Source: Candidatus Taylorbacteria bacterium RIFCSPHIGHO2_02_FULL_46_13 (GTDB lineage Bacteria > Patescibacteriota > Minisyncoccia > Phycocordibacterales > DSPV01). From it: a stretch of 64,000 nt of DNA. Position 1 is the stretch's first letter; each line of letters starts with the position of its first letter. The notes beneath the pieces are model-generated. The model saw only the letters and a list, made by a program, of their open reading frames with translations, was not told the origin of the DNA and ran no database searches. The DNA lies in contig MHRQ01000020.1 in the NCBI GenBank assembly GCA_001821015.1, positions 44,977 to 108,976 of the forward strand. The letters are read 5' to 3'. Of the stretch, positions 31,609 to 64,000 are shown one piece after another. A program made the translations under genes and the position numbers.

Positions 31609-31621
31609 TATAAGGTGATAA

Positions 31622-31870
31622 CTACCACTTGTTGATTTTACGTACCACTTTTCGTTTCAGATTCAAGTATGATCGGGTTGCTCTCTGTTCAAGCTCAGGA
31701 GAGAGGACATGCAAAAGCTCACGCCCGAGGATTCGGTATTGACCACCGACCTTATTGGCGCGTATCATCCCGTTTTTAAGAAGTCGCTTCATAGTGCTCT
31801 TGCTCACTTTGAGAAGCTTCTGGGTTTCTGCGGTTGTATAGACCACTCCTGGCCTTATCTCTTCGTTCAT
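31622..31870 (-). CDS. Small excisionase-type (HTH_17-like) DNA-binding protein
   Basis: YTTAETQKLLKVSKSTMKRLLKNGMIRANKVGGQYRILGREL. 82 aa. Confidence 0.6.
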   Translation of the reverse strand: MNEEIRPGVVYTTAETQKLLKVSKSTMKRLLKNGMIRANKVGGQYRILGRELLHVLSPELEQRATRSYLNLKRKVVRKINKW

Positions 31871-31876
31871 AACCCT

Positions 31877-31905
31877 AGTATAGGGCAGGTGTCAAAAGGT
31901 GTCAA
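31877..31905 (-). promoter_or_regulatory. Sigma70-like promoter (TTGACA-N17-TATACT, minus strand) with duplicated TTGACACC box, 6 nt upstream of the HTH gene start codon (leaderless-type transcript)
   Basis: Minus strand reads CCTAC TTGACA CCTTTTGACACCTGCCC TATACT AGGGTT ATG. Plus strand shows GGTGTCAA at 31888..31895 and 31898..31905. Confidence 0.45.
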
Positions 31906-32058
31906 GTAGGTTCACATCTATAGAGACACATGATTAAGTATCAGTCAATTATTTTTTTCGTGTTTTCTTTATTGGGTGTGGTAGGGTGTATTCGGACAAA
32001 CAGTTTCCCACGCGGATGCGTGACTTTAAACTGTGTTTGAACTTTAACAAGGAGTGTT

Positions 32059-34839: not shown

Positions 34840-36381
34840 ATGCAGCCTAGAAAACTTGACGTATTGTTCGTTAATCCTGACTCATCTTTCAAGGCGTATC
34901 AGGCATTAAGCAAAGATTTTTCGGCAATAGAGCCGCCCACGTGGGCGTTACTGTTAGCCCAGAGTTGTCGGGCCAAAGGTTTTGGTGTCGGTATTTTGGA
35001 CTGTGGTGCCGAACGACTGGGCATTAATGATTCAATTGAACGCATTATTGGCGCAGACCCACGATTAGTCTGTTTTGTGGTGTACGGTCAAAACCCGAAT
35101 TCTGGCACTACAAATATGGCCGGTGCGCACGATTTGTGTGCACAGCTAAAGGAACAGTATCCTCAATATGTCACCTGCTTCGTAGGTTCTCACACCAGTG
35201 CCTTGCCTAAAGAAGTGCTGGCGTGGGATTGCGTAGATTTCGTTCTCTTGAATGAAGGTGTCTATGCACTTCATAACGTGCTCCAAACAGATCTGAAAGA
35301 ACATATTGAGCAGGTTAAGGGCATCGGCTACAAAAAGCAGGGTGTCTTGATCTTGAATCCCCCCGAGCGTGTCGTGCCGCAAGATCGGATGGACGTAGAC
35401 CTGCCGGGGTATGCGTGGGATCTTCTTCCGTATCGTGAAAAACCTCTTGACTTGTATCGGTCGCATTTCTGGCATGCGGAGTTCAATCATGAACTTCGTA
35501 CTCCATTCGTTGCACTCTACACGGGACTTGGGTGCAAGTTCAAATGTGACTTCTGCATGGTTAACATTGTCAACCGTGTTGATAATACTGACGGAGTTGT
35601 CGCTTCTCACTCACCGACCGTGCGCTTCTGGTCGCCAGAGTTTATGATTGGAGAATTTGAGAAACTTGCTGAACTGGGGGTCAAGACGGTCAGGATTTCA
35701 GACGAAATGTTTTTCCTTAATCGGAAATTCTTTGAACCGTTGTTGAATCTGGTTGTGGAACGCGGTTTCAAATTCCGCATGTGGGCGTACTCTCGCATAG
35801 ATACTGTTCAACCACAGCATTTAGATCTGTTTAAACGCGCGGGTATTAATTGGCTCGCACTTGGAATTGAGGCTGCCAATCTGGTCATCCGACAAGAAGT
35901 CTCCAAGGGTTCTTTCAAGGATATGAGCATCCGCAAAGTAGTAAGCGAGATTGGTCGGCATGACATGAATATAATTGCCAATTATATTTTCGGTCTTCCT
36001 GACGACAGTCTTAAAACGATGCAAGAAACACTGGACTTATCCTTGGAGTTGAATACTGAAACCGCAAACATGTTTCCTTGTCAGGGCTTGCCTGGTAGCG
36101 CGCTGTACTACCTCGCGAAAAGCAACGGGTGGGCCTTGCCGGATTCTTATGCCGGGTATGCATTTCTTTCTTATGAGAGCCAACCGTTGCCTACGAAATA
36201 TTGTACGGCGGCAGAAGTGCTCCGTTTTCGGGATGATGCGTGGAAAAAATACTTCTCTAATCCTGCGTATCTCAGCCTTGTGGAACGCAAATTCGGTGCC
36301 AACCAACGACGCAACGTTGAGGCTATGTCAAAAATCAAGCTTCGTCGCAAGCTTCTCGGTGATCCGCCTCCAGGGCCGTAG
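34840..36381 (+). CDS. B12-binding (class B) radical SAM enzyme, probable methyltransferase
   Basis: N-terminal cobalamin-binding-like region (LDVLFVNPDS...VGILDCG) and radical SAM cluster motif GCKFKCDFC (Cx3Cx2C). Confidence 0.7.
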   Translation: MQPRKLDVLFVNPDSSFKAYQALSKDFSAIEPPTWALLLAQSCRAKGFGVGILDCGAERLGINDSIERIIGADPRLVCFVVYGQNPNSGTTNMAGAHDLCAQLKEQYPQYVTCFVGSHTSALPKEVLAWDCVDFVLLNEGVYALHNVLQTDLKEHIEQVKGIGYKKQGVLILNPPERVVPQDRMDVDLPGYAWDLLPYREKPLDLYRSHFWHAEFNHELRTPFVALYTGLGCKFKCDFCMVNIVNRVDNTDGVVASHSPTVRFWSPEFMIGEFEKLAELGVKTVRISDEMFFLNRKFFEPLLNLVVERGFKFRMWAYSRIDTVQPQHLDLFKRAGINWLALGIEAANLVIRQEVSKGSFKDMSIRKVVSEIGRHDMNIIANYIFGLPDDSLKTMQETLDLSLELNTETANMFPCQGLPGSALYYLAKSNGWALPDSYAGYAFLSYESQPLPTKYCTAAEVLRFRDDAWKKYFSNPAYLSLVERKFGANQRRNVEAMSKIKLRRKLLGDPPPGP

Positions 36382-36398
36382 GCCGAGATATATGTTCT

Positions 36399-38849: not shown

Positions 38850-38882
38850 AAAGCCTAGCGCTTATAGCTTAGGGCTTTGAAA

Positions 38883-38906
38883 ACGAAGGTTGAACCTTCG
38901 TTTTTA
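38883..38906 (+). terminator. Rho-independent terminator (ACGAAGGTT-GA-ACCTTCGT + TTTTTAT)
   Basis: Perfect 8-9 bp stem followed by T-tract, 35 nt after stop of 36585..38849. Confidence 0.65.
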
Positions 38907-39154
38907 TGGTTTAGGGTACAGGGGAGAGGGTAGAGCATGGTGTTAATAGGCGCGCATTCGGTGAGCGCATTTCCAAGCTATTGAACCATAACGATTCATT
39001 TGACTTTATTAAGCATATATGCTAAGCTCTCCAGTGTGAGTGCTAGCCGACGCTAGCCCTAACGAATGTCTGCGAAAAACCCAGCGAAAGCGGGGTTTTT
39101 CGTTTCTGTTTTTAGCCTTTCTGCTATACTATAAGTTGCAACCCAAACAAATTT

Positions 39155-39242
39155 TATTGCCTAGCGAGTGAGCGAAGAGAAAAAGTATACTCTTTTTCTC
39201 TCCCGAGCGAGCGACGGCAACAAAGGGTTTAATACCCTTTAA
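39155..39242. repeat. Hairpin repeat family, copy D (short form)
   Basis: TTATTGCCTAGCGAGTGAGCGAAGAGAAAAAGTATACTCTTTTTCTCTCCCGAGCGAGCGACGGCAACAAAGGGTTTAATACCCTTTAAT. Confidence 0.85.
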
Positions 39243-39268
39243 TCAAAATTTGAAAACGGGTACATTGC

Positions 39269-39343
39269 GCCAAACTATGGCCGGCGGTTGCACTCATATA
39301 AGACATTAGTTTTAGGAGCTGGCCCCGCCGGCCATAGTTTGGC
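39269..39343. repeat. Perfect 19-bp inverted repeat (GCCAAACTATGGCCGGCGG ... CCGCCGGCCATAGTTTGGC) with 37-nt loop, 20 nt upstream of murB
   Basis: Read directly; arms at 39269..39287 and 39325..39343. Confidence 0.9.
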
Positions 39344-39362
39344 GGAATAGCCTTGTATCCCA

Positions 39363-40606: not shown

Positions 40607-40687
40607 ATGGCTAAAAAAAGAAAAGCTAAAAAAGCAAAAAAGGCAAAGAAATCAAAGAAGCGAAAATCTTCTAAGCGCCGCAGGTAA
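40607..40687 (+). CDS. Very small Lys/Arg-rich ORF (MAKKRKAKKAKKAKKSKKRKSSKRRR); possibly spurious or a leader/basic peptide
   Basis: 26 codons in an A-rich stretch with no clear RBS, followed by a terminator hairpin. Confidence 0.25.
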   Translation: MAKKRKAKKAKKAKKSKKRKSSKRRR

Positions 40688-40695
40688 AGCGGACA

Positions 40696-40728
40696 AAAAG
40701 AAACCTCTACAAAGGTTTCTTTTTTTGT
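40696..40728 (+). terminator. Rho-independent terminator (AAAGAAACCT-CTACAA-AGGTTTCTTT + T-tract)
   Basis: Stem-loop plus TTTTTTTG immediately upstream of secA start. Confidence 0.6.
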
Positions 40729-40745
40729 GTTATTATACCCAGTCT

Positions 40746-43250
40746 ATGTCGCTATTGACCCGTATTTTCGGAGATGAGAACGCAAAAACGGTAGGGAAAT
40801 TCCAGCCCACAGTTGTGGCAATTAATGCACTTGAGCCTGACTTTGTTAAGCTCTCCGATGACCAGCTGAAAGCAAAGACGGATGAATTTAAAAAACGTCT
40901 CGTGTCAGGCGAGATGCTTGACTCGTTTCTCCCCGAAGCTTTTGCCGTAGTGCGTGAAGCCGCGAAGCGCACACTTAAACAACGGCACTTTGACGTACAG
41001 TTGGTTGGAGGAATGGTGTTGCACTATGGAAATATTGCCGAAATGAGGACCGGAGAAGGAAAGACGCTTGTGGCAACACTGCCTGCCTACCTTAACGCGC
41101 TTCTAGGTAAAGGAGTGCATGTAGTTACGGTCAACGACTACCTCTCACGTCGCGATGCGGTGTGGATGGGGCAAATTTACAATACGCTCGGACTTTCGGT
41201 TGGCGTACTCACGCATGATACGTCGTATCGCTATGACCCGGCGCACAAAGAACTTGATGAAAAACGTGATGAAGTTGCTTCGTTCCACGTTGTCTATGAG
41301 TTTTTGCGCCCCACGACGCGGCGCGAGGCCTATGAGGCTGACATCACGTATGGCACCAACAATGAGTTTGGTTTTGACTATTTAAGAGACAATCTTGAGT
41401 ATGAAGTAAAAGACCTTCGTCAGCGGCCATTTCACTATGCAGTGGTGGACGAAATTGACTCTATTTTAATTGACGAAGCGCGAACGCCCTTAATTATTTC
41501 AGCGATGACCTCTGAATCGGAGGATTTATACAGGACGTTTGCGGGTATTGTTAAAGATTTCCAAGACGGAGATGATTATGAAATAGACAAAAAATTAAAG
41601 GCCGTTACGCTCACTGACGCGGGTATTTCTAAAGCCGAGAAGAAGCTTGGGATAGAAAATATTTACACGGATGCTGGTATTAAATCTGTGCATCATTTAG
41701 AGACGGCGGTGAGGGCGAAGGCGCTGTTTCATAAAGATAAAGAGTATGTGGTACGAAATGGAGAAGTTGCTATCGTAGATGAGTTCACGGGGCGTCTGCA
41801 ACCGGGACGACGCTGGTCAGAGGGTTTGCATCAAGCGATTGAGGCGAAAGAAGGTGTAACGGTTCAGAAAGAATCTCGCACATTCGCGTCCATTACATTT
41901 CAAAATTATTTCAGGCTCTACAAAAAGCTTTCTGGTATGACCGGTACGGCGCTCACTTCTAAAGAAGAATTCTTCAAAGTGTACGGGCTGGATGTCGTCG
42001 CCATACCCACGAACACTCCTATGATCCGCGCCGACAAAAACGACCTCATTTTTCAGAGTGAAAAAGGGAAGTTTACGGCCGTGGCGCGTAAAATTAAAGA
42101 GCTCAATCAAAAGGGCCAGCCAGTTCTTGTTGGTACTGTTTCTATTGAGAAAAATGAGGTTTTGTCAGGCTATTTGACGCGTGAAGGGGTCGCGCATGAG
42201 GTTTTGAATGCTAAAAACCACGAACGTGAAGGAGAAATTATCGCGCAAGCGGGGCGAAAAGGAGCGGTAACCATAGCGACTAACCTCGCAGGACGAGGCG
42301 TTGATATAAAACTGGGAGGAAATCCATCTTCAGCTGAGGATCATGAAAAAGTAAAGCAAGCCGGAGGATTATTCGTGCTTGGCACAGAACGCCATGAAGC
42401 ACGTCGCATTGACAATCAGTTGCGCGGTCGCTCGGGCCGACAGGGTGACCCCGGCGAGACACAGTTTTTTGTTTCACTTGAAGATGAGCTGATGCGTGTG
42501 TTTCCCCGCGATATGATGATAAAGATGATGGGACGCTTAGGTGTTGCTGAAGATGAGCCGATTGAAAACCGCATGATCACACGTTCTATTGAGACCGCGC
42601 AGACGAAGATTGAAGGGTTTCATTTTGATGCGCGCAAACACGTGCTGGAATACGACGATGTCATGAATCATCAGAGAAAAATCGTATACGAACGCCGGCG
42701 TGCGGTTTTAATAGGCGATACCACTGCAATAGATGCGTACCTCGCAAATATTGCCGGTGGAGATGAGGCGGCCCAGAAAGCGATTGCCGATAAAAAGAAA
42801 GAATTGGGAGATACAGAGTTTTACACCGTCATGCGGCGTGTGATTTTGCAGGCGATAGATATGCTTTGGGTGGACCACTTGGAAATGATGGACTACATGC
42901 GCGGCAGTGTGAACTTGCGTGCCTACGGCCAGCGCGACCCGCTCGTGGAGTATAAAAGGGAAGGTTTAAAATTGTTCAAAGAAATGGAAGCGACGATCGG
43001 AGGGCAGATTTTGAGTGTCATTCCCAAAATTGTTCCAGGGGCATTTGCCACCAGAGACAAAGAAATGGAGCAGGTGCGCAAGCGCGCAGCCGAGATAACG
43101 TCTCGCACTACGGGCATAGTTGTTGGTGATAAGAAAAAAGAAATCGGTCGCAACGACCCATGTCCGTGCGGAGCGATTAATCCACAAACGAATCGGCCTT
43201 ATAAATATAAGCAGTGTGGTCTCATCAATGCTCCTCATCACAAGAAATAG
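40746..43250 (+). CDS. secA: Preprotein translocase ATPase SecA
   Basis: MSLLTRIFGDENAKTV..., Walker A MRTGEGKT, DEAD-like motifs, C-terminal Cys-rich zinc-binding tail (CPCGA...KYKQCG). Start placed at the Met after the terminator; track ORF begins 40725. Confidence 0.9.
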   Translation: MSLLTRIFGDENAKTVGKFQPTVVAINALEPDFVKLSDDQLKAKTDEFKKRLVSGEMLDSFLPEAFAVVREAAKRTLKQRHFDVQLVGGMVLHYGNIAEMRTGEGKTLVATLPAYLNALLGKGVHVVTVNDYLSRRDAVWMGQIYNTLGLSVGVLTHDTSYRYDPAHKELDEKRDEVASFHVVYEFLRPTTRREAYEADITYGTNNEFGFDYLRDNLEYEVKDLRQRPFHYAVVDEIDSILIDEARTPLIISAMTSESEDLYRTFAGIVKDFQDGDDYEIDKKLKAVTLTDAGISKAEKKLGIENIYTDAGIKSVHHLETAVRAKALFHKDKEYVVRNGEVAIVDEFTGRLQPGRRWSEGLHQAIEAKEGVTVQKESRTFASITFQNYFRLYKKLSGMTGTALTSKEEFFKVYGLDVVAIPTNTPMIRADKNDLIFQSEKGKFTAVARKIKELNQKGQPVLVGTVSIEKNEVLSGYLTREGVAHEVLNAKNHEREGEIIAQAGRKGAVTIATNLAGRGVDIKLGGNPSSAEDHEKVKQAGGLFVLGTERHEARRIDNQLRGRSGRQGDPGETQFFVSLEDELMRVFPRDMMIKMMGRLGVAEDEPIENRMITRSIETAQTKIEGFHFDARKHVLEYDDVMNHQRKIVYERRRAVLIGDTTAIDAYLANIAGGDEAAQKAIADKKKELGDTEFYTVMRRVILQAIDMLWVDHLEMMDYMRGSVNLRAYGQRDPLVEYKREGLKLFKEMEATIGGQILSVIPKIVPGAFATRDKEMEQVRKRAAEITSRTTGIVVGDKKKEIGRNDPCPCGAINPQTNRPYKYKQCGLINAPHHKK

Positions 43251-55867: not shown

Positions 55868-57301
55868 GTGGCAAAAGAGTATTATCCTACAATAGGTCTA
55901 GAAATCCACGCGGAGCTTAAAACGCAGACTAAAATGTTCTGCAATTCCAAGAATGACCCCGAAGAGAGTCGTCCTAACGTTAATATTTGCGCCGTCTGTC
56001 TTGGGCACCCTGGAACGCTTCCTACGGTCAATAAAGAGGCAGTCTTGCACGTTATTAAAGTTGGTCTCGCTGTAGGCGGCAAGATTGCCGATTATTCAGA
56101 GTTTGATCGGAAGAATTATTTTTATCCAGATATTCCCAAAGGCTATCAGATCAGTCAGTACAAGTATCCGCTCGTAGAAGGTGGAGAGCTTTCAGATGTA
56201 GCACTGACGAGAGTCCACTTGGAAGAAGATACCGCGCAGTCCTTTCATAAAGAAGGGGAGGAAGAAAATTTCAGTCTTGTAGATTTCAATCGTGCCGGAG
56301 TTCCACTGATGGAACTTGTAACCGAGCCAGTTATAAAGAGCGCGACGCAAGCGAAATATTTCGCGCAGGAACTTCAACTACTTTTAAAGTATCTCGGTGC
56401 CTCTGATGCCAACATGGAGAAAGGGGAGATGCGCGTTGAAGCGAATGTATCAATCAGTACTGATCCTAAAATACTAGGAAAGAAAGTTGAAGTAAAAAAT
56501 CTAAATTCGTTTCGCGCGGTAGAGGATGCAATTAATTTTGAACTTGCAAGACATAAGGTCCTCTTGGAAGAGGGGAAAGAGGTGATTCAAGAAACTCGTG
56601 GATGGAATGAAGATAAAGGAGAAACATTTTCTCAGCGGCGCAAAGAAGAGTCGCATGACTATCGTTATTTTCCAGATCCAGATATTCCTAAGCTTACCTT
56701 AAAAGAGGTAAAAGAATTTGACTTAGAAGAGCTTCGTATTGGTTTACCAGAGCTTCCTTCAGCAAAGCGCGATAGGTTGGAGAGGCGATACGGTCTTAAA
56801 AGAGAAGATATAGAATTGTATGTGCAAGATACGACGGTTGGGAATTTTTTTGAATCAGTCAGTACACTCTTGACTGACGCAGAGCAGATTAAATTAGGAT
56901 CTAATTACATTGCGTCTGATCTTGTGGGTCTCATGAATACAGGGAATGCAGACACACACATCAAACCAGTTGATTTTGCACAGCTTGTAATGATGATTAC
57001 AAGAGGCGAAGTGTCTTCCAGGGGGGCAAAAGATATTCTTAAGATTATGCACGATACGGGGGGTACTCCGAAAGCTATAGCAGAAGAACATGAGCTCTTC
57101 CAAGAGAGTAATGAAGAAGCTCTTTTGTCTGTGGTGAATAAAATTATTTCTGAAAATCAAACCGTTGTAGCAGACTATCACGCAGGCAAAACTGCTGCAC
57201 TTCAGTTCTTAGTAGGGCAGTGCATGAAAGCAACAAAAGGGAGCGCGAATCCGGGCATTTTGCAGCAGATCATAAAAAAAACTTTAAGTAAAGAGGTCTG
57301 A
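55868..57301 (+). CDS. gatB: Asp/Glu-tRNA(Asn/Gln) amidotransferase subunit B
   Basis: IGLEIHAELKTQTKMFC...ICAVCLGHPGTLP and C-terminal GatB/YqeY-type tail. Confidence 0.9.
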   Translation: MAKEYYPTIGLEIHAELKTQTKMFCNSKNDPEESRPNVNICAVCLGHPGTLPTVNKEAVLHVIKVGLAVGGKIADYSEFDRKNYFYPDIPKGYQISQYKYPLVEGGELSDVALTRVHLEEDTAQSFHKEGEEENFSLVDFNRAGVPLMELVTEPVIKSATQAKYFAQELQLLLKYLGASDANMEKGEMRVEANVSISTDPKILGKKVEVKNLNSFRAVEDAINFELARHKVLLEEGKEVIQETRGWNEDKGETFSQRRKEESHDYRYFPDPDIPKLTLKEVKEFDLEELRIGLPELPSAKRDRLERRYGLKREDIELYVQDTTVGNFFESVSTLLTDAEQIKLGSNYIASDLVGLMNTGNADTHIKPVDFAQLVMMITRGEVSSRGAKDILKIMHDTGGTPKAIAEEHELFQESNEEALLSVVNKIISENQTVVADYHAGKTAALQFLVGQCMKATKGSANPGILQQIIKKTLSKEV

Positions 57302-57830
57302 TTTGATGAAGTCCGAAGACCGACTAAAGAGCGTGTAACATCGATTCTTTTTTAATTTATATCATCTCGGGTATCCGAGATATAGCTCTAACAGAGGATA
57401 TTTACGCTCTCTTCCGAGATGATGCTCCTTTGAGAAACAAAATTGTATTTTTAACATACGCACATACATAGAAAATGCATTTTTTGAAAATGTTATAGAA
57501 AAATTAGTCCGAGTGATCTTTTTGCAGGTGTTTACCTTAAAACTCCAATAATTTTATTGGGGGCTATCTATGTTCCTTAACATAAGCCTACTCTTAGAAA
57601 GGTTTTCTATATTTTGGCTCTCTTCATCTGACCACGGTTCCCTTTTAACTGATGAGGGGAGATAGTTTTTGTTTAAAAATAGATCAATTTTCAGAAAATC
57701 GTATCGATTTTTCGATTGTTATTTTTTGTTTCACGAAAGTGAAATAAATAGACTCGGATATCCGAGATAGCCTTATTTATCCACATATTTTGGCCATCTC
57801 GGATGAAATAAATTGTTAAAATTATCTGTA
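57302..57830 (+). promoter_or_regulatory. 530-bp non-coding leader upstream of the giant ORF with nested palindromes built on ATCTCGG/CCGAGAT (for example 57364..57381, 57414..57423, 57753..57766, 57796..57804), plus TTTCAC-GAAA-GTGAAA and repeated GAAATAAAT boxes
   Basis: ATCATCTCGGGTATCCGAGAT ... CCGAGATGAT; perfect 14-bp CTCGGATATCCGAG; ATCTCGGATGAAATAAAT. Read directly. Confidence 0.4.
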
Positions 57831-60800
57831 ATGTCAGAAAATAACGGGCACATATTTCTACAAGGGAAAAAATATATTTCATCTCGTCTCTGTGCAGAGA
57901 TTTCAAAATATTCACATGACTACGTTGGTCAGCTTTGCCGTAGTGGCAAACTTGAGTGTACCCGTGTAGGAAGAGCCTGGTATGTAGGCGAAGCATCACT
58001 CTTTAATCACCTCAAAGAAAACTCTCCTTCAGAGTATGTGAAGCGCGTGAGTGCAAGAGCTGTCAGTAGTGATGCTGTGTATACCGAGATATCCACTGCG
58101 TCCAGAACCGAAGAAATAAAAAGTGCTGCCCGTTCTGCTGCCCGTGAAGAAATTAAATATTTCCACGATGACAGAGTACTGTTGCCCACGTTACCTCCAC
58201 TCGTAACTACCCAAGGGAGAGATACTTCCAAAAAAATTCCTCGTTTGCTTTCTCCCTACCACAAGAATTTTTCGCTCGCGACAATTTCACATCCAAATTC
58301 TGTTAATAAAGTCGGGGCTCTCATGCTCTCGGTGGTGCTTACGGTTGGGGTAGTAATGTTTAAAAATACGGTTGATGTCACCGAGGCGTTGCATGGAATT
58401 TCACGAACGGCAAAGTCTATCAGCACGCTCGCACCATATCTGACCGCGGATACGTTTGCCGATGGAGCACGTGTGTATGCACATGAAAGTCTTGAATCGT
58501 TTGGTAAGTTGCTGTCCGAATTTAGAACTCGCTCCACCCGATTTGCAAAAATTGTTGTGGACAGCGCGTTATCTCTGGAGCGTGAAGTTGCAAAAGATCC
58601 CATCGGTTTCGCGCGCGACGCTGGAAGTGCTTACCGTGCTACGGTCTTTGACGGGACACGTCAGGCATTTATATATAATACTGGCACGTTCGCGCTCGCC
58701 ATTAACGGTTTAGAACAGAAATCTGGATTTACATTTTCCTTAAGCTCCCTTGCGCGTAGTGTCAATCGGAGCATCAATGATTTTGTCGTAGGGCTCTTTA
58801 CCACACCGGCGACGTATGTATATCTACCTCCTGTTCAAAACAGCCAGAACAGTGCACCCGCTCCGTCAAGTCGCTTTATTGTTCAAAATATCTATCCAAG
58901 CACCGAGCACACGACGAATCAAGTCTCTGCCGGGGGTATCACACGGGCTGAATTTGAAACCCGCTTAAGCATTCTAAGCAACAAGTTCACTTCCGATTTG
59001 AGCCTATTTTCAGATCGGACTTTTGGGAGCACCATCTATGTGCCATCACCGAGTTTGTCCCAAGAAATTGCTCACTCTCAAAGAATTGACCACCTGACAG
59101 GGACGCTGATCACCACCCCATCCATTGTCGGGGGTTCCATTACAGACGCGAGTATCTCTGGAGGGACTCTTTCGGGTGTATCCATCACAGGACTCTCTAG
59201 TTCGTTTGGTTCACTCTCGGTTACCGGTACGGGTACCTCAACGTTTGTTGGAGGTGTTTCCAGCCAGACCATCTTCCAAGGTTCGACCTTGGAGGGTGGT
59301 CGTGGGCAGTTCGGTGTCATCGTTTCTACCTCCACTACTGCCACAAGTACATTTTCCGGTGATGTTGCTTTTGACAGTGACACTCTGTACGTAGATTCAC
59401 TGAACAACCGTGTTGGTGTTGGGACTTCATCACCGACTGATACATTCTCTGTTAACGGTCCGATTTTTCTCTCAAACGTAGCTCCGGCCAATACCTCCAA
59501 TCGCCTCTACGCAAATGCGAGCTCTCTTTATTGGGCCGGCAATTTAATCGGTGGAGCGACGACGGGCAACTGGACGACCGATGGTACGAATGCTTGGAGA
59601 GCAACCGGCAACGTCGGCATTGGCACCACCTCTCCTTACGCCAAGTTGTCGGTTGAACATCTCTCAACCACCGGCACAGTCATTGGCGCCGACGCGCTCA
59701 CGGGATTTACCGGAAATCTTTTGGATTTGAAAGTCGCCTCCACCACCAAGTTCTCAATCAATCAAAGTGGCGATCTTCTTACGATGGGCTCCACCACTCT
59801 CCAAGGTTTAACCTTTGTTAACGCGACGGGCACTAATGCGACGACTACCAATTTTTACGCCAGCAATTCTCTCTCTGTTCTAGGCGGAACCTTTCTTAGC
59901 GGAAGTCTGACTTCCACATACTCTGGCACCTCCACTTATTCTGGCGGTCTTTACGCTTCGCTTCTCTCCGCCCCATACTTCAATGCCACCTCCACCACTG
60001 TTGACTCAGTTTTAAATCGCTTCGTCAGCATCTTTGGCACGACCACCAACGCCACTTCAACCAATTTTTACGCAACCAACCTCGTTGCCGGAAACGCCAC
60101 CACCACCTCTTTCTTTGCCACTCTCGGACGGTTTGTGGATTCGTTCTTCTCGTCCTCCTCCGTTGGACAGTTGACGGTGGGCTCCATCACGGCCACGTCA
60201 ACGACGGCTACGTCCACGTTCCAGAATCTCTCCTTTGTCAGTGGCACGTCCACGAACAGCTTCTCCTCGTTCAACTTCACGGGTACGAATGCCACCACGA
60301 CCTCACTGTTTGCAAACATTGCACGAATCGTAGATTCGTTCTTTGCGTCAAGCTCGGTTGGGAACTCGACGGTAGGTTCACTGACCTCCACCTCCACCGC
60401 CACCTTCACCCAAGCTACGTCCACCTCCTTCTTCACCTCAATTTTCAACTCGGTCTCTTCGGTCTTCTCATCTGTCATCACCGGCACTTCCACAATCGGC
60501 GACCTTAACGCCACCTCCTCAATCAAACTAACTTACACCGGCGCCAATATGCTCATCACAACCGACGGGACAGGGAAGTTGGTTTCTTCTTCCACTCCAA
60601 CGGCGGCAAATTATCTTGCCACCTCAACTACAGCGACTTCAACATTTGCAGGGGGCTTGAGTGTCGCAGGCACTGCTGGACTGACCGTCTTGCAGAATGG
60701 GAATGTGGGGATTGGCGATGATTCTCCCCTATCTCTTCTCACGGTTGGCAACGGCGATCTTTTCCAGATCAATTCTTCTGGGCAAGTCGGTGTGCTGACA

Positions 60801-63800
60801 GCTCCTGTGTCTGACTATCTCATGACACTGAACGATTCTGTAAATAATAGTAGTAGTCGTATTATCGATATCACTCAAGCTGATAGTACAAATGAAAACA
60901 GTTATGGGATCTATTCAACTAACACTGTCAATCTCGGCACCCTTTCTTCTGGTGTATCTCGAACCCTTGCTGGTATGTATCAGAATTTAACCCCTACCGC
61001 TAATTTAAACTTCAGCTCGGGAATTACTGCGAATGTAACAGTTTCTGGCGTTAATAATAATATCAATTTAAGTAATATCTCTTTTGCTGATTCTAATAAA
61101 TCCACATCTGTTGTTACGTATGGAGATTATTCAGCTATTTCAGGATCACCAACAGTTACTGATATAAACAGTATTCAATCCAACTCACTATCAGTTTCTG
61201 GTACTTATAATACTGTCGGTGTTACACCGACGTGGAGCGGTTCTCTTAATGATGATATGACTTTTACTTCTCATGGAGGATATTTTGAAAATACATCCTC
61301 CAGTGCTGGCGATGCGCTTCTAACTTCAAGGGCGTATGGCGTATACGGAGTGTCAACCGGAAATCTGACCACCACCGGTGATACTATTCATTACGGCGGC
61401 TATTTTCAGGCCGGCGGAACTGCTGATACAAACTACGGACTTTATGTCGATTCGAGCGACGCTACTACGAACTATGGAATATATTCTGCGGCTACGGGAC
61501 AGAGTTATTTTGCCGGCAACGTCGGGATAGGCACCACTTCGCCATACGCCAAACTTTCAGTTGTGGGCCAAACAGTGGCGGCCTACTTCACGGCGACGAC
61601 GACCGCCACCTCCACCTTCCCCACACTCCTCACCACCAACGCAACCTCCTCCAGCTTCGCCATCACGAATCTTACCTCCACTCTCCTCAAAACTAATTCC
61701 TTCGGTTCAGTTATCCCAGCTGTAGCCGGCACTGACTACGCGCTAGGGAACGTTGCGTATCCGTTCACCCCTTCAGTCGCTTGGGGAGCGTTGGCACAAG
61801 CAACCACTTCTCTCTTGGCCTTTCCACAGGGGCTCATAGCTTCAGGAACGATAGGACGATTGACTGTCGGTTCTTTGACAGCAACCTCAACAGTGTCTTT
61901 CCCTGCTTCTTCTATTACGAATACAATGCTTCTAAACAGCACGATTTCAGGCGTGGCTTTGGGCGGGACACTCTTTGCTTTAACTAATAACGATACTCTG
62001 GGCGGCTCCTCGTATGACGGAAGCTCCGCTATTTCGGATTGGGGCATCAATCTTGGAAATGCAAACACATGGACAGCGGCTCAATTATTCAACTACACCG
62101 CGACCACTTCATTTTCAGGGGGACTGTATGCTTCCTTGATTTCCTCGCCTTACTTCCACGCCACCTCCACGACAGCCACTTCAACATTCTCTGGTGGAAT
62201 TTCAGGAGCGCACGCATCTCTTTCCGCAGGACTTATTGTTTCTGGCGGCAACGTCGGCATCGGGACTTCGACTCCGCAGAACAAGTTGAATGTTGTGGGG
62301 GATTTGAATGTGGTGACTTCTGGTAGTGCTTTGCCGACGCTTTATGCGAACACTTCAGGGAATGTTGGAATCGGGACGGCGGCGCCAGATTCAGGCTCAC
62401 GATTGCATGTAGTAGGTCCTTCTTTTGGACAACTAAGGGTAGAAACAGCCAACAGCGGTATAAATGGTCCTGGTATACTTATTATGAACTCAGCCGCTTC
62501 GGGTGCAAAAAACTGGGTAGTCGGTGCTAATCAGAATGCTAGCAATTTGTTTGAAATCACTCCCTCAACAGCAAATGACGGAACTACATTCTCAACGCCA
62601 AATTTGTCAATAGCAGGAGCAACCGGCAACGTCGGCATCGGGACGACGTCACCTGTCTCAAAATTGTCAGTGTCGGGGGGAGCGTCTGTGGGAGCAGACT
62701 ACAACATCGCGGCCCCGACGAATGGAATGATAATACAAGGCAACGTCGGCATCGGGACGACGTCACCTGTCTCAAAATTGTCAGTGTTAGGTGAATCAGC
62801 TTTCGCAGGAGGTGCTAGTGTCGGTATTGGTTACGCGGGAACTGCGGCTCCAACGGGAGGATTAATAATTCAAGGCAACGTCGGCATCGGGACAACAGGC
62901 CCCAGTCGCTCATTGCATATAGCTCAATCTGAATCGATTGCTTACCTAAACACAACCTCAACCAGCCCCGGGTTCCACTCCATGCTTATATTAGAGGCGC
63001 AAGGCTCTGCTAATAACTACTCCCAAGTTCGCTATATGAACCAGGGAACTTCCTACTTCTCGGCTGGCATTGATCCCCAGAATAGTTTTGCCTACTCCAT
63101 TGCTAACGGCTCAAATGTTAACGTCAATCCTCGTCTGACGATCACAACTGGCGGCAACGTCGGGATTGGGACGACGAGTCCGACGGCACGATTAGAAGTT
63201 GGTGATGGTGATGGGCTTGAGCTTCTTTATATTAACGGTGGAAATTCTGGTTCCGCAATGGGAGTAGGCATTTACTTAAACAATGCTGGCACACCACGCA
63301 ATGCTATAGGTAATTATAGCGCGATTGTGGGAGGAACTTTTAGTAGCGATTTGATGTTCTATAATGAGGGCTCTACAAATAATAAGATTCATTTTCACAA
63401 CAATGGCGGTGTAAAAATGGTAATAGATAGCTCCGGCAACGTCGGCATCGGGACGACCAGCCCCCTTTACAAATTATCAGTTGAGTCCACTTCCGAAGGA
63501 AACATGTTCCAAATTTACGACACCGATGGCAATTGTCTCCTAGATCCCGACTCCGGAGGCATCACCACCACCTGTTCATCAGACATCAGATTAAAGACAA
63601 ATATTACTGACGCACAACCTGTTCTGTCATATCTTGCAAACATTCCAATCAAAGATTACACCGTCATCGCTTCGGGAGATCAGAGAACCGGTGTGGTCGC
63701 CCAAGAACTTCTCGCTTCCGGCTACAGCGATCTCGTGCACATGGGTCCGGACGGCTATTATGGCGTCTCGGAAATCAGCTCATGGAAATTGATAAAAGGG

Positions 63801-64000
63801 ATTCAGGAGCTTGATTTACGCAGTGCCGACATTGCCCGAGCTTTAGCATCCACGACCTCAATTCTTTCTTCCTCCATTGCCGATATTGATGCCAAGCTTG
63901 CCCAGGTCCTCGCTTCAACTTTTGCTTCCTCAACCATTGACCAGATTATTGCGAGTACCACGGTAAATATTGTCGCTGGCCAATCCTTCATCGCGCGGAT
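57831..64000 (+). CDS. Giant (more than 2,050 aa, 3-prime end beyond window) predicted membrane-anchored surface protein: N-terminal HTH_17/excisionase-like domain, single TM helix, Thr/Ser-rich repeat region with recurring GNVGIGTTSP(Y/V)(A/S)KLSV motif, C-terminal peptidase S74-like intramolecular-chaperone motif SSDIRLKTNI
   Basis: Checked codon by codon: frame starting ATG 57831 has no stop through 64000 (TGA at 57804 in-frame upstream). Not in supplied ORF track, presumably because it lacks a stop within the window. Minus-strand ORFs 59078..59500, 60068..60526 and 61736..62068 are shadows of it. Confidence 0.75.
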   Translation, partial: MSENNGHIFLQGKKYISSRLCAEISKYSHDYVGQLCRSGKLECTRVGRAWYVGEASLFNHLKENSPSEYVKRVSARAVSSDAVYTEISTASRTEEIKSAARSAAREEIKYFHDDRVLLPTLPPLVTTQGRDTSKKIPRLLSPYHKNFSLATISHPNSVNKVGALMLSVVLTVGVVMFKNTVDVTEALHGISRTAKSISTLAPYLTADTFADGARVYAHESLESFGKLLSEFRTRSTRFAKIVVDSALSLEREVAKDPIGFARDAGSAYRATVFDGTRQAFIYNTGTFALAINGLEQKSGFTFSLSSLARSVNRSINDFVVGLFTTPATYVYLPPVQNSQNSAPAPSSRFIVQNIYPSTEHTTNQVSAGGITRAEFETRLSILSNKFTSDLSLFSDRTFGSTIYVPSPSLSQEIAHSQRIDHLTGTLITTPSIVGGSITDASISGGTLSGVSITGLSSSFGSLSVTGTGTSTFVGGVSSQTIFQGSTLEGGRGQFGVIVSTSTTATSTFSGDVAFDSDTLYVDSLNNRVGVGTSSPTDTFSVNGPIFLSNVAPANTSNRLYANASSLYWAGNLIGGATTGNWTTDGTNAWRATGNVGIGTTSPYAKLSVEHLSTTGTVIGADALTGFTGNLLDLKVASTTKFSINQSGDLLTMGSTTLQGLTFVNATGTNATTTNFYASNSLSVLGGTFLSGSLTSTYSGTSTYSGGLYASLLSAPYFNATSTTVDSVLNRFVSIFGTTTNATSTNFYATNLVAGNATTTSFFATLGRFVDSFFSSSSVGQLTVGSITATSTTATSTFQNLSFVSGTSTNSFSSFNFTGTNATTTSLFANIARIVDSFFASSSVGNSTVGSLTSTSTATFTQATSTSFFTSIFNSVSSVFSSVITGTSTIGDLNATSSIKLTYTGANMLITTDGTGKLVSSSTPTAANYLATSTTATSTFAGGLSVAGTAGLTVLQNGNVGIGDDSPLSLLTVGNGDLFQINSSGQVGVLTAPVSDYLMTLNDSVNNSSSRIIDITQADSTNENSYGIYSTNTVNLGTLSSGVSRTLAGMYQNLTPTANLNFSSGITANVTVSGVNNNINLSNISFADSNKSTSVVTYGDYSAISGSPTVTDINSIQSNSLSVSGTYNTVGVTPTWSGSLNDDMTFTSHGGYFENTSSSAGDALLTSRAYGVYGVSTGNLTTTGDTIHYGGYFQAGGTADTNYGLYVDSSDATTNYGIYSAATGQSYFAGNVGIGTTSPYAKLSVVGQTVAAYFTATTTATSTFPTLLTTNATSSSFAITNLTSTLLKTNSFGSVIPAVAGTDYALGNVAYPFTPSVAWGALAQATTSLLAFPQGLIASGTIGRLTVGSLTATSTVSFPASSITNTMLLNSTISGVALGGTLFALTNNDTLGGSSYDGSSAISDWGINLGNANTWTAAQLFNYTATTSFSGGLYASLISSPYFHATSTTATSTFSGGISGAHASLSAGLIVSGGNVGIGTSTPQNKLNVVGDLNVVTSGSALPTLYANTSGNVGIGTAAPDSGSRLHVVGPSFGQLRVETANSGINGPGILIMNSAASGAKNWVVGANQNASNLFEITPSTANDGTTFSTPNLSIAGATGNVGIGTTSPVSKLSVSGGASVGADYNIAAPTNGMIIQGNVGIGTTSPVSKLSVLGESAFAGGASVGIGYAGTAAPTGGLIIQGNVGIGTTGPSRSLHIAQSESIAYLNTTSTSPGFHSMLILEAQGSANNYSQVRYMNQGTSYFSAGIDPQNSFAYSIANGSNVNVNPRLTITTGGNVGIGTTSPTARLEVGDGDGLELLYINGGNSGSAMGVGIYLNNAGTPRNAIGNYSAIVGGTFSSDLMFYNEGSTNNKIHFHNNGGVKMVIDSSGNVGIGTTSPLYKLSVESTSEGNMFQIYDTDGNCLLDPDSGGITTTCSSDIRLKTNITDAQPVLSYLANIPIKDYTVIASGDQRTGVVAQELLASGYSDLVHMGPDGYYGVSEISSWKLIKGIQELDLRSADIARALASTTSILSSSIADIDAKLAQVLASTFASSTIDQIIASTTVNIVAGQSFIAR

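Follow-up and report, generated by a model that had tools for sequence, protein, structure and literature searches.

Conserved ATCTCGG palindromes as candidate control sites at a giant surface-protein gene of a Paceibacteria bacterium

We asked what function could be assigned to the gap of 529 nucleotides (nt) that separates gatB from the gene of a giant surface protein in Candidatus Taylorbacteria bacterium RIFCSPHIGHO2_02_FULL_46_13, a Paceibacteria bacterium of the candidate phyla radiation (CPR). The gap occupies positions 57302-57830 of the 64,000-nt stretch of contig MHRQ01000020.1 analysed here (the window). Upstream lies gatB (55868-57301, + strand; Pfam GatB_N and GatB_Yqey); downstream, also on the + strand, the giant gene starts at 57831 and runs past the window end at 64000, its full length of 2305 amino acids (aa) having been read from identical contigs. 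An earlier note on this DNA had described the gap as a structured leader with recurring palindromes and had offered three roles for it: operator sites, a structured 5' untranslated region (UTR) or an attenuator. Comparison with related loci indicates that the gap is, on balance, upstream control DNA of a leaderless or nearly leaderless gene, in which putative protein-binding sites are clustered on the sequence ATCTCG(G).

Palindromes in the gap and the genes they accompany

The four palindromic units pointed out by the earlier note are all present. The distal palindrome, P1 (ATCTCGG-GTAT-CCGAGAT, ATCTCGGGTATCCGAGAT; 57364-57381), has perfect 7-nt arms and is 16/18 palindromic overall; the span of 57361-57383 first given for it takes in flanking bases. 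A third distal half-site, CCGAGAT (57414-57420, + strand), follows 39 nt past the start of the P1 right arm, in the partner site CCGAGATGAT (57414-57423), which is a perfect 10-nt complement of 57361-57370. The proximal palindrome, P2 (CTCGG-ATAT-CCGAGAT, 57753-57768), is centred ~71 nt before the ATG; it contains the perfect 14-base-pair (bp) palindrome CTCGGATATCCGAG (57753-57766), and its right arm continues to CCGAGAT at 57768. The fourth unit, ATCTCGGAT (57796-57804), holds a proximal half-site ATCTCGG (57796-57802, + strand) in the -35 slot, 14 nt before the -10 hexamer. The repeated box TGAAATAAAT, at 57740-57749 and 57804-57813, and the hairpin TTTCAC-GAAA-GTGAAA at 57729-57744 were likewise found as described. 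Only two perfect CTCGG-N4-CCGAG sites exist in the window, both in the gap, and 5 of the 14 matches to ATCTCGG in 64 kb fall within its 529 nt. The elements of the gap are far beyond chance, and a chance origin is excluded.

A word-index search for close homologues with the first 330 aa of the giant protein gave only matches to its helix-turn-helix (HTH) domain, and relatives were therefore reached through the synteny of gatB. The order obg-gatB-(HTH-TM gene), the last encoding an HTH domain and a transmembrane (TM) helix, is kept across Paceibacteria. An HTH-domain gene lies directly downstream of gatB in ~28/80 Paceibacteria loci, and also in more distant members reached from protein matches. 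In one-genome-per-species collections the closest GatB, 68% identical, belongs to a Candidatus Taylorbacteria / Paceibacteria metagenome-assembled genome. In ten metagenome contigs with identical GatB, which represent independent assemblies of one strain, the gap matches at 729/729 nt, and they thus add no variation. Contigs with the identical GatB derive from ERZ4903072, the ANAN16-1 samples SAMN038424xx and SRR2090162.

Conservation was examined most closely in the W clade, which comprises the window locus (W) and L011, L012, L013 and L032 (GatB 64-68% identical). Their gaps measure 412-746 nt, contain no genes and are randomised in sequence except for motif islands; among relatives with GatB 58-68% identical the gap is likewise randomised save for a few islands. 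In the W clade the islands run in the order GTGTAACA or GTGAAACA after the gatB stop, P1 (often with the third half-site 38-39 nt beyond), TGTTTCAC, P2, lone half-sites and the -10 element. P2 is directly followed by AT(G/A)GC(C/T)TTATTTATCCACA, and one or two lone half-sites precede the -10 element. Twelve nine-mers are shared by at least four of the five gaps, against 0.005 in shuffles. Between the islands, the AT-rich spacer 57424-57726 differs in length and sequence between relatives, and no conserved open reading frame (ORF) or known RNA was found in it by tblastx and blastn between W-clade gaps, small-ORF comparison and Rfam.

Individual elements were traced through further loci. A palindrome of P1 sequence lies 18-92 nt past the gatB stop in L012, L013, L032 and L033, and a palindrome also follows that stop in L100, L107, L114, L142, L144 and L140. 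The third half-site keeps its 38-39-nt spacing in L013 and is degenerate in L012. P2 is kept in L011, L012, L013, L032, L015, L040 and L020 and in ~26 metagenome loci. The latter came from a scan with the pattern CTCG-N6-CGAGAT-N0-16-TTATCCACA (19 bases), which gave 61 matches; 26 had an HTH gene ~50-115 nt downstream, most of those with gatB upstream, and the remainder, about the number expected by chance, lay in unrelated, mostly GC-rich sequence. An alignment of 16 loci left four invariant blocks, CTCGG, CCGAGAT, TTATCC.CA and TA..AT. Conservation in related genomes, one of the points on which the earlier note had made its proposal depend, was observed across a class-level group.

The palindrome is tied to one gene family. 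In 1.3 Mb of related loci, CTCG-N6/7-CGAG occurs within -150 to +120 of 30/40 HTH gene starts, a density of 2.98 per kb compared with 0.047 per kb in the other 1.29 Mb (63-fold; p about 1e-42). Paralogues that do not adjoin gatB also carry it, some in tandem arrays. It stands either upstream or within the first 25 codons, and the reading frames differ. Of 28 gatB-linked loci, 18 have no upstream palindrome, and in those 18 the peptide Y-I-S-x-x-R-A is encoded as TAY ATC TCG nnn nnn CGA GCn, and these codons make ATCTCG-N6-CGAG at about +38. ATC-TCG is used for Ile-Ser in 18/28 loci (expected 4%) and CGA for Arg in 18/18 (background 17%); judged by codon choice, the intragenic palindromes are held by rare synonymous codons. 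L153 has its palindrome at other codons and in another frame. Most loci without an intragenic copy have an upstream palindrome or half-site (W, L011-13, L032, L020, L026, L053 and L071), and L015 and L040 have copies in both places. The window itself retains a degenerate intragenic remnant, ATCTCG-N9-AGAGAT (57881-57901, + strand; codons S-S-R...A-E-I), where relatives have the full ATCTCG-N6-CGAG. A dispersed repeat of the REP (repetitive extragenic palindromic) or MITE (miniature inverted-repeat transposable element) kind was considered and rejected: the 64 kb hold no further copy of the palindrome, and the relatives' copies are tied to the one family.

P1 and P2 could instead be intrinsic terminators or insulators, P1 ending the obg-gatB transcript and P2 shielding the giant-gene promoter, with a stem sequence that was simply inherited. 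P1-type palindromes do lie shortly past the preceding stop codon, often with T-rich tails such as GTTGTTTTATAAC or GTTCTTTTTTAT; GGCTTTATTTAT comes after P2, and a terminator scan flags P2, albeit on the minus strand only. We nevertheless regard this explanation as unlikely. Terminator stems normally drift by compensatory changes, whereas CTCG/CGAG is invariant at 58-68% GatB identity. The P1 tail of W (ATAGCTCT) is not U-rich, and on the + strand the scan picks up neither P1 nor P2. It also leaves unexplained the lone half-sites at the -35 slot, the palindromes held by rare codons inside coding sequence and the 63-fold association with a single gene family. P1 may have a dual role, as a protein site and as a hairpin that helps to end gatB transcription, since T-rich sequence follows P1 in relatives.

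A separate element, GTGTAACA (57333-57340, + strand), begins 32 nt past the gatB stop and is followed by a T6 run (57348-57353). It is common to 4/5 close relatives, the fifth having the variant GTGAAACA (motif GTGTAACA or GTGAAACA/G). The local fold reaches only -6.9 kcal/mol (z about 0), and the element is possibly part of a weak gatB terminator.

Promoter geometry and the nature of the sites

An extended -10 element, TGtTAAAAT (57814-57822, + strand), sits 8 nt before the start codon of the giant gene, and the -10 block is kept in 16/16 aligned loci. This position suggests that the predicted mRNA is leaderless or nearly so. Only 5/57 window genes have a Shine-Dalgarno-like 4-mer. In several window genes, gatB among them, a -10 hexamer precedes the start codon by 7-10 nt. 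A sister clade shows a canonical promoter just ahead of the ATG (TTATCC[A/C]CA, 9 nt, TTCAAA, 17 nt, TATACT, 7 nt, ATG), and W has the same geometry with the half-site CATCTCGG (57795-57802) in place of the -35 hexamer. In L152, ATCTCG stands 18 nt before TATACT. A half-site lies between the conserved box and the -10 element in 11/16 aligned loci, forward in seven and reversed in four, and is absent from five; in W and many relatives it occupies the -35 slot, 11-14 nt before the predicted -10, with P2 adjoining the box. The box itself, TTATCCACA (57777-57785, + strand), is a perfect match to the DnaA-box consensus within the conserved block TTATTTATCCACA next to P2, and is the sole perfect copy in 64 kb (relaxed form TTWTNCACA). 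Nearly all related loci have a TTATCC[A/C]CA-like box ~30-42 nt ahead of the -10. The gap accordingly has an inverted repeat whose half-site is conserved in orthologous control regions, placed at or next to predicted core promoter elements.

With a conserved extended -10 only 8 nt before the ATG, the gap would lie upstream of the transcript if that promoter is used; the palindromes are upstream of the predicted transcription start, and "leader" is probably the wrong word for them. Within the spacer, a sigma-70 consensus scan gave a promoter-like site at 57430-57457, and a + strand terminator-like site was seen at 57638-57661; neither is conserved, and counts were at or below shuffle expectation.

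Several further matches were noted around these elements. On inspection, the window's other matches to the box (36509 and 40418) and to CCGAGAT (36383) appeared to be due to chance; one of them lies in a terminator loop. The isolated, widely spaced pair TCTCGG-N24-CCGAGAT (36353-36389), across the stop codon of a radical-SAM gene (34840-36381), probably arose by chance as well. A 27-nt segment at 57673-57699 (TTAAAAATAGATCAATTTTCAGAAAAT), 143 nt upstream of the stretch 57816-57842 that takes in the -10 and start codon of the giant gene (TTAAAATTATCTGTAATGTCAGAAAAT), is 74% identical to it and may be either the remnant of a duplicated core promoter or a second promoter. The AT-rich near-palindromes AATTTTCAGAAAAT and ATTTTTTGAAAAT (57685-57699 and 57479-57491), 195 nt apart, form a pair that is not conserved in relatives; we take the pair to resemble the CodY box of Firmicutes, and it is probably a product of chance in AT-rich DNA.

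If the gap were a long structured 5' UTR or attenuator, it would switch between mutually exclusive hairpins, the arms of P1 competing with the pairing 57361-70/57414-23 and those of P2 with 57760-72/57792-804. Folding was among the checks suggested at the outset. The + strand of the gap does fold better than its shuffles (z = -4.0), as do the sub-regions 57355-57430 (z = -2.7) and 57720-57830 (z = -4.4), both with alternative pairings available, and L032, L107 and L026 again show an extended pairing around the DnaA-like box. However, the minus strand folds equally well (z = -3.9), and such equality of the strands is expected of DNA palindromes. The alternative pairings of W depend on the orientation of the extra half-site, and in relatives the third half-site occurs in either orientation, so that the alternative pairing is not conserved.

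The pattern of change pointed the same way. In loci found through GatB alone, CTCG/CGAG is identical in 33/33 instances, while the spacer and the fifth arm position vary freely, non-pairing combinations included. Counting of pairs in P2 showed five that never vary, and its covariation score was reached by 189/500 shuffles; neither compensatory changes in a conserved structure nor a match to a described RNA family was found. Rfam gave no match at gathering score for the whole window and nine relatives, and only noise at E up to 10 for the region; no tRNA or tmRNA was found. The conserved -10 lies downstream of all the proposed RNA elements, and the half-site of L152 is in the -35 slot, outside transcripts from that promoter. 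Given the invariant sequence, the lack of covariation, the equal folding of both strands, the variable half-site orientation and the absence of Rfam matches, we favour sequence-specific double-stranded-DNA sites over an RNA leader or attenuator, which we judge improbable. Among the three roles first offered, the operator sites are the one supported, by half-sites that are conserved in sequence, stand in either orientation, include one in the -35 slot and are tied to the HTH family; the structured 5' UTR and the attenuator are not supported.

Inverted sites flanking a variable segment upstream of a surface-protein gene also call to mind site-specific recombination. P1 and P2 would then be core sites at which a recombinase inverts or deletes the ~370-bp segment between them, or exchanges the 5' ends of paralogues, an arrangement we take to resemble fim-type invertons or Mycoplasma vsa sites. 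It would fit a site copy inside the conserved 5' coding region of many paralogues, some in tandem arrays, an N-terminal domain of the giant protein whose best structural match is an excisionase, and a ~45-nt piece of the spacer that lies in opposite orientations in L140 and L100. Yet the gap has a single orientation in 10/10 independent assemblies of the strain, with 100% identity across 729 nt, and a scan of 37 window proteins gave no recombinase (a minus-strand cluster at 12-31 kb was outside the scan). For the core site of a tyrosine or serine recombinase, 18 bp is short, and the conserved -10 is not part of the segment that would invert. We see little likelihood of recombination at these sites, and an equally small one of its proposed result, phase or antigenic variation of the giant adhesin.

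The ~45-nt segment of L140 and L100 (ccgcttcacccttccccgaag..gggctccgacgcgtat) lies between P1 and P2 and is flanked by inverted repeats GCCGCAATATCAAAATTTT. In the same subclade, which also includes L032 and L114, the spacer is bracketed by TTGCCAAATTCTTTTTCGG / CCGAAAAAGAATTTGGCAA; neither feature is in the window. The segment and the bracketing repeats may represent small insertions, either invertible or palindromic.

A replication origin or partition region was the least credible of the alternatives. It would draw on the perfect TTATCCACA at 57777, on a resemblance of TGTTTCAC-GAAA-GTGAAA to a split parS, and on the gap's having the window's lowest GC content (0.373) at a peak of cumulative GC skew. 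However, the gap holds one DnaA box with at most two mismatches against 1.6 expected by chance, + strand genes stand on both sides with no orientation switch, and the skew changes from positive to negative, which is the sense of a terminus and coincides with the Thr/Ser/Gly-rich giant gene. The TGTTTCAC motif (57727-57744, + strand) is part of the hairpin TTTCAC-GAAA-GTGAAA and looks like parS split by 4 nt. A parS site requires the contiguous 16-bp palindrome TGTTNCACGTGAAACA; here the halves are split by GAAA (57727-57746). TGTTTCAC/GTGAAACA is found in 5/5 W-clade gaps, and with just two copies in the 64-kb window the half-site is not enriched. No dnaA, dnaN or parB was found among the same 37 proteins. 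Neither parS nor the set of features that marks oriC (a DnaA-box cluster, an unwinding element and a switch in skew and gene orientation) was found, and both were rejected. At 58001-62000 the GC skew is negative (to -0.22) only across the giant gene, and the turn is most simply put down to the Thr/Ser/Gly/Ala-rich repeat composition rather than to a replication terminus.

A candidate reader of the sites and the proposed circuit

In the giant protein, a winged HTH at the N-terminus (aa 7-64) is accompanied by a TM helix (aa 160-178), long GNVGIGTTSP-type repeats and, at aa 1917-1963, a Peptidase_S74 chaperone domain. The AlphaFold model of the N-terminal domain has a predicted local distance difference test score of 95 or more over roughly residues 11-60. 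It comprises a beta-hairpin, a two-helix HTH, a wing and a C-terminal helix, superposable on Xis and BldC. In Foldseek comparisons it matched the Xis of mycobacteriophage Pukovnik (template-modelling score 0.74, root-mean-square deviation 1.3 Å) and BldC-DNA complexes (template-modelling score 0.75-0.80), with RdfS and RacA-DNA also among the best PDB matches; for 4J2N and 6AMA together the scores were 0.74-0.80, the deviations 1.2-2.9 Å and the probabilities 0.99-1.00. The HTH that the earlier note had read at the N-terminus therefore stands, as a modelled excisionase/BldC-like winged helix with a sub-threshold Pfam HTH_17 score. The region of the recognition helix, DYVGQLCR.GK, is invariant across the family, and several homologues carry a precomputed PF12728 match. 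At E up to 1e-3 the domain family numbers 4222 cluster representatives, and many of its proteins have two tandem copies. Among relatives of the N-terminal domain (P0032, P0033, P0042 and P0047 were noted), tandem winged helices often precede the TM helix. The window protein has a single copy of the domain, against two in its closest relative, P0032 (64% identical). P0047, at 1995 aa also a giant, shares the GNVGIGTTSP repeats.

In the proposed control region, a distal cluster just past gatB (P1 and the third half-site, 57361-57423) would be separated by ~300 nt of unconstrained spacer from a proximal cluster (57753-57802), in which P2 at ~-71, the DnaA-box-like TTATCCACA at ~-50 and the lone half-site in the -35 slot stand beside the extended -10. 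Occupancy of the -35 slot would repress transcription; repression is suggested as the sign of the regulation because a half-site fills that slot. Looping between P1 and P2, or a block by P1 of read-through from gatB, might aid repression, and DnaA or another reader of TTATCC[A/C]CA could supply a second, independent input. As the binder we tentatively propose the N-terminal winged helix, of excisionase/BldC type, that the giant gene or its paralogues encode and that the TM helix would keep at the membrane. Autoregulation by the protein's own N-terminal domain, through putative binding to these sites, is the likeliest and most economical model.

Several points weigh against this interpretation of the gap and its binder. 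The support is wholly comparative, and the phylogenetic relatedness of the loci means that the counts are not entirely independent. An additional upstream promoter might place P2 in a transcript. P1-type sites stand just past the preceding gene, often with T-rich sequence after them, for example GTTGTTTTATAAC in the L032 subclade, where a terminator role for them is possible. The small size of the domain leaves the Foldseek E-values weak (0.06-0.2), and the W protein scores 18.2 bits with Pfam HTH_17 (PF12728), below the 27-bit gathering cut-off. The winged helix could bind protein rather than DNA, as the HTH of RodZ does, and the reader of the sites could be a factor whose gene lies elsewhere in the genome. 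In the sister clade the box often reads TTATCCCCA, off the strict DnaA consensus and with a broken CACA core, and because this variant is common DnaA may not be the reader.

More doubtful is a lineage-wide circuit of self-tethering, in which the excisionase-like winged helix, at the cytoplasmic end of a membrane-inserted and often giant surface protein, would bind ATCTCG-N6-CGAGAT at its own gene, in cis. Being synthesised first, the helix would remain close to its template while transcription, translation and membrane insertion proceed in a coupled manner, and its action in cis would thereby cap the expression of a very costly gene. The DnaA-box input would tie expression to the replication cycle.

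By fold, the nearest known proteins are those of the BldC/excisionase family, which have a MerR-like winged helix. They bind arrays of short repeats whose number and arrangement vary by promoter (PMC5859096); arrays of that kind fit the mix of palindromes and lone half-sites in either orientation seen at the giant gene. BldC, Xis and RdfS (PDB 6AMA, 4J2N and 8DGL) have the same fold as the N-terminal domain in the AlphaFold model. BldC and Xis are small, soluble and bind direct repeats head to tail; at the loci studied here the main site is an inverted repeat, and a TM helix joins the domain to a surface protein of 300-2300 aa. By topology, membrane-anchored regulators of the ToxR/CadC kind come closest. 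With ToxR, TcpP and CadC the giant protein shares a cytoplasmic N-terminal DNA-binding domain (putative here), a single TM helix, an extracytoplasmic C-terminal part and a proposed action on promoters from the membrane. Those regulators use OmpR-type winged helices and control other genes in response to periplasmic signals; the domain here is excisionase/MerR-like, the outer part consists of giant tail-fibre-like repeats and the sites are at the protein's own gene. RacA of Bacillus subtilis, whose structure (PDB 5I44) is among the fold matches, is a MerR-like winged helix that recognises a short GC-containing inverted repeat (ram) and links DNA with the cell envelope. As a soluble protein that binds ~25 origin-proximal sites, RacA anchors the chromosome via DivIVA; neither multiple chromosomal sites nor a role in segregation was seen here.

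As in the DnaA-box-controlled promoters of dnaA and nrd, the 9-mer TTATCCACA is just upstream of the -35 position and conserved in orthologous promoters. Unlike in those promoters, the box is single, the sister-clade TTATCCCCA breaks the CACA core, and the box may belong to a different factor. The two clusters of the same sequence a few hundred bp apart, one of them overlapping the promoter, recall the auxiliary operators of lac, gal and ara; unlike in those loops, the spacings (352-554 bp) show no conserved helical phase, and looping is pure conjecture.

In the literature searches made, we found no description of the element, the HTH-TM family, leaderless translation in CPR or membrane-anchored excisionase-like regulators. 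To our knowledge, very little gene regulation has been described in CPR/Patescibacteria, most of which are uncultured, and an excisionase-type helix, TM anchor and giant surface protein, together with sites both upstream of and within the protein's own gene, form a combination for which we know of no parallel. The comparison defines a short DNA motif and a promoter architecture, conserved at class level and tied to one large protein family that includes giant tail-fibre-like surface proteins with a possible part in attachment to host cells. Should the N-terminal domain bind the motif, membrane-bound transcription factors would gain a new architecture, and there would be a handle on how these minimal cells control their most expensive surface structures. 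The motif can serve as a genome-wide search key for a regulon in complete CPR genomes. The self-tethering circuit, if true, would be a membrane-anchored autoregulator built on an excisionase fold and among the first defined cis-regulatory circuits of CPR.

Neighbouring genes and other features

The gap is the longest in the window, where the median gap is 15.5 nt; it stands out less than the earlier note had said, since non-coding gaps of 513 nt (38850-39362) and 450 nt (31609-32058) are also present, neither with an Rfam match at gathering score. A hidden small gene in the gap was rejected: ORFs of at least 25 aa in the five W-clade gaps share nothing, and tblastx between the gaps returned motif islands only.

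In a sister clade (L014, L016, L017, L018, L023, L024, L043, L044, L049, L059, L064 and L020), the corresponding gap contains a divergently transcribed gene of the MerR/HTH_17 type, 79-81 aa long, which is also present in L055, L056, L058 and L157 (protein FLTIKQAAKILGVTPLTLRNWD..RHPINNYRVY). Upstream of it stands a conserved TTATCAA-N11-TTGATAA or, in some loci, a second DnaA-box-like ATCC[A/C]CA. The small gene is absent from the window, and the palindrome tracks the HTH-TM gene, not the small gene. The idea that the gap is a pseudogene of this gene was dropped, tblastn having found no trace of it in the window at E up to 1.

Beyond the window, downstream of the giant gene, a series of small genes in L001 (19020-21434) has HigB-like, ParE/YoeB-like, GIY-YIG and AbiEii matches, and this island resembles a toxin-antitoxin or defence cluster. 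The window's own gene content includes housekeeping and glycan-synthesis genes. Upstream of secA (40725-43250), a 26-aa Lys/Arg-rich ORF (40607-40687, + strand; MAKKRKAKKAKKAKKSKKRKSSKRRR) is followed by a clean hairpin-plus-T-run terminator and is likely a real gene for a small basic protein.

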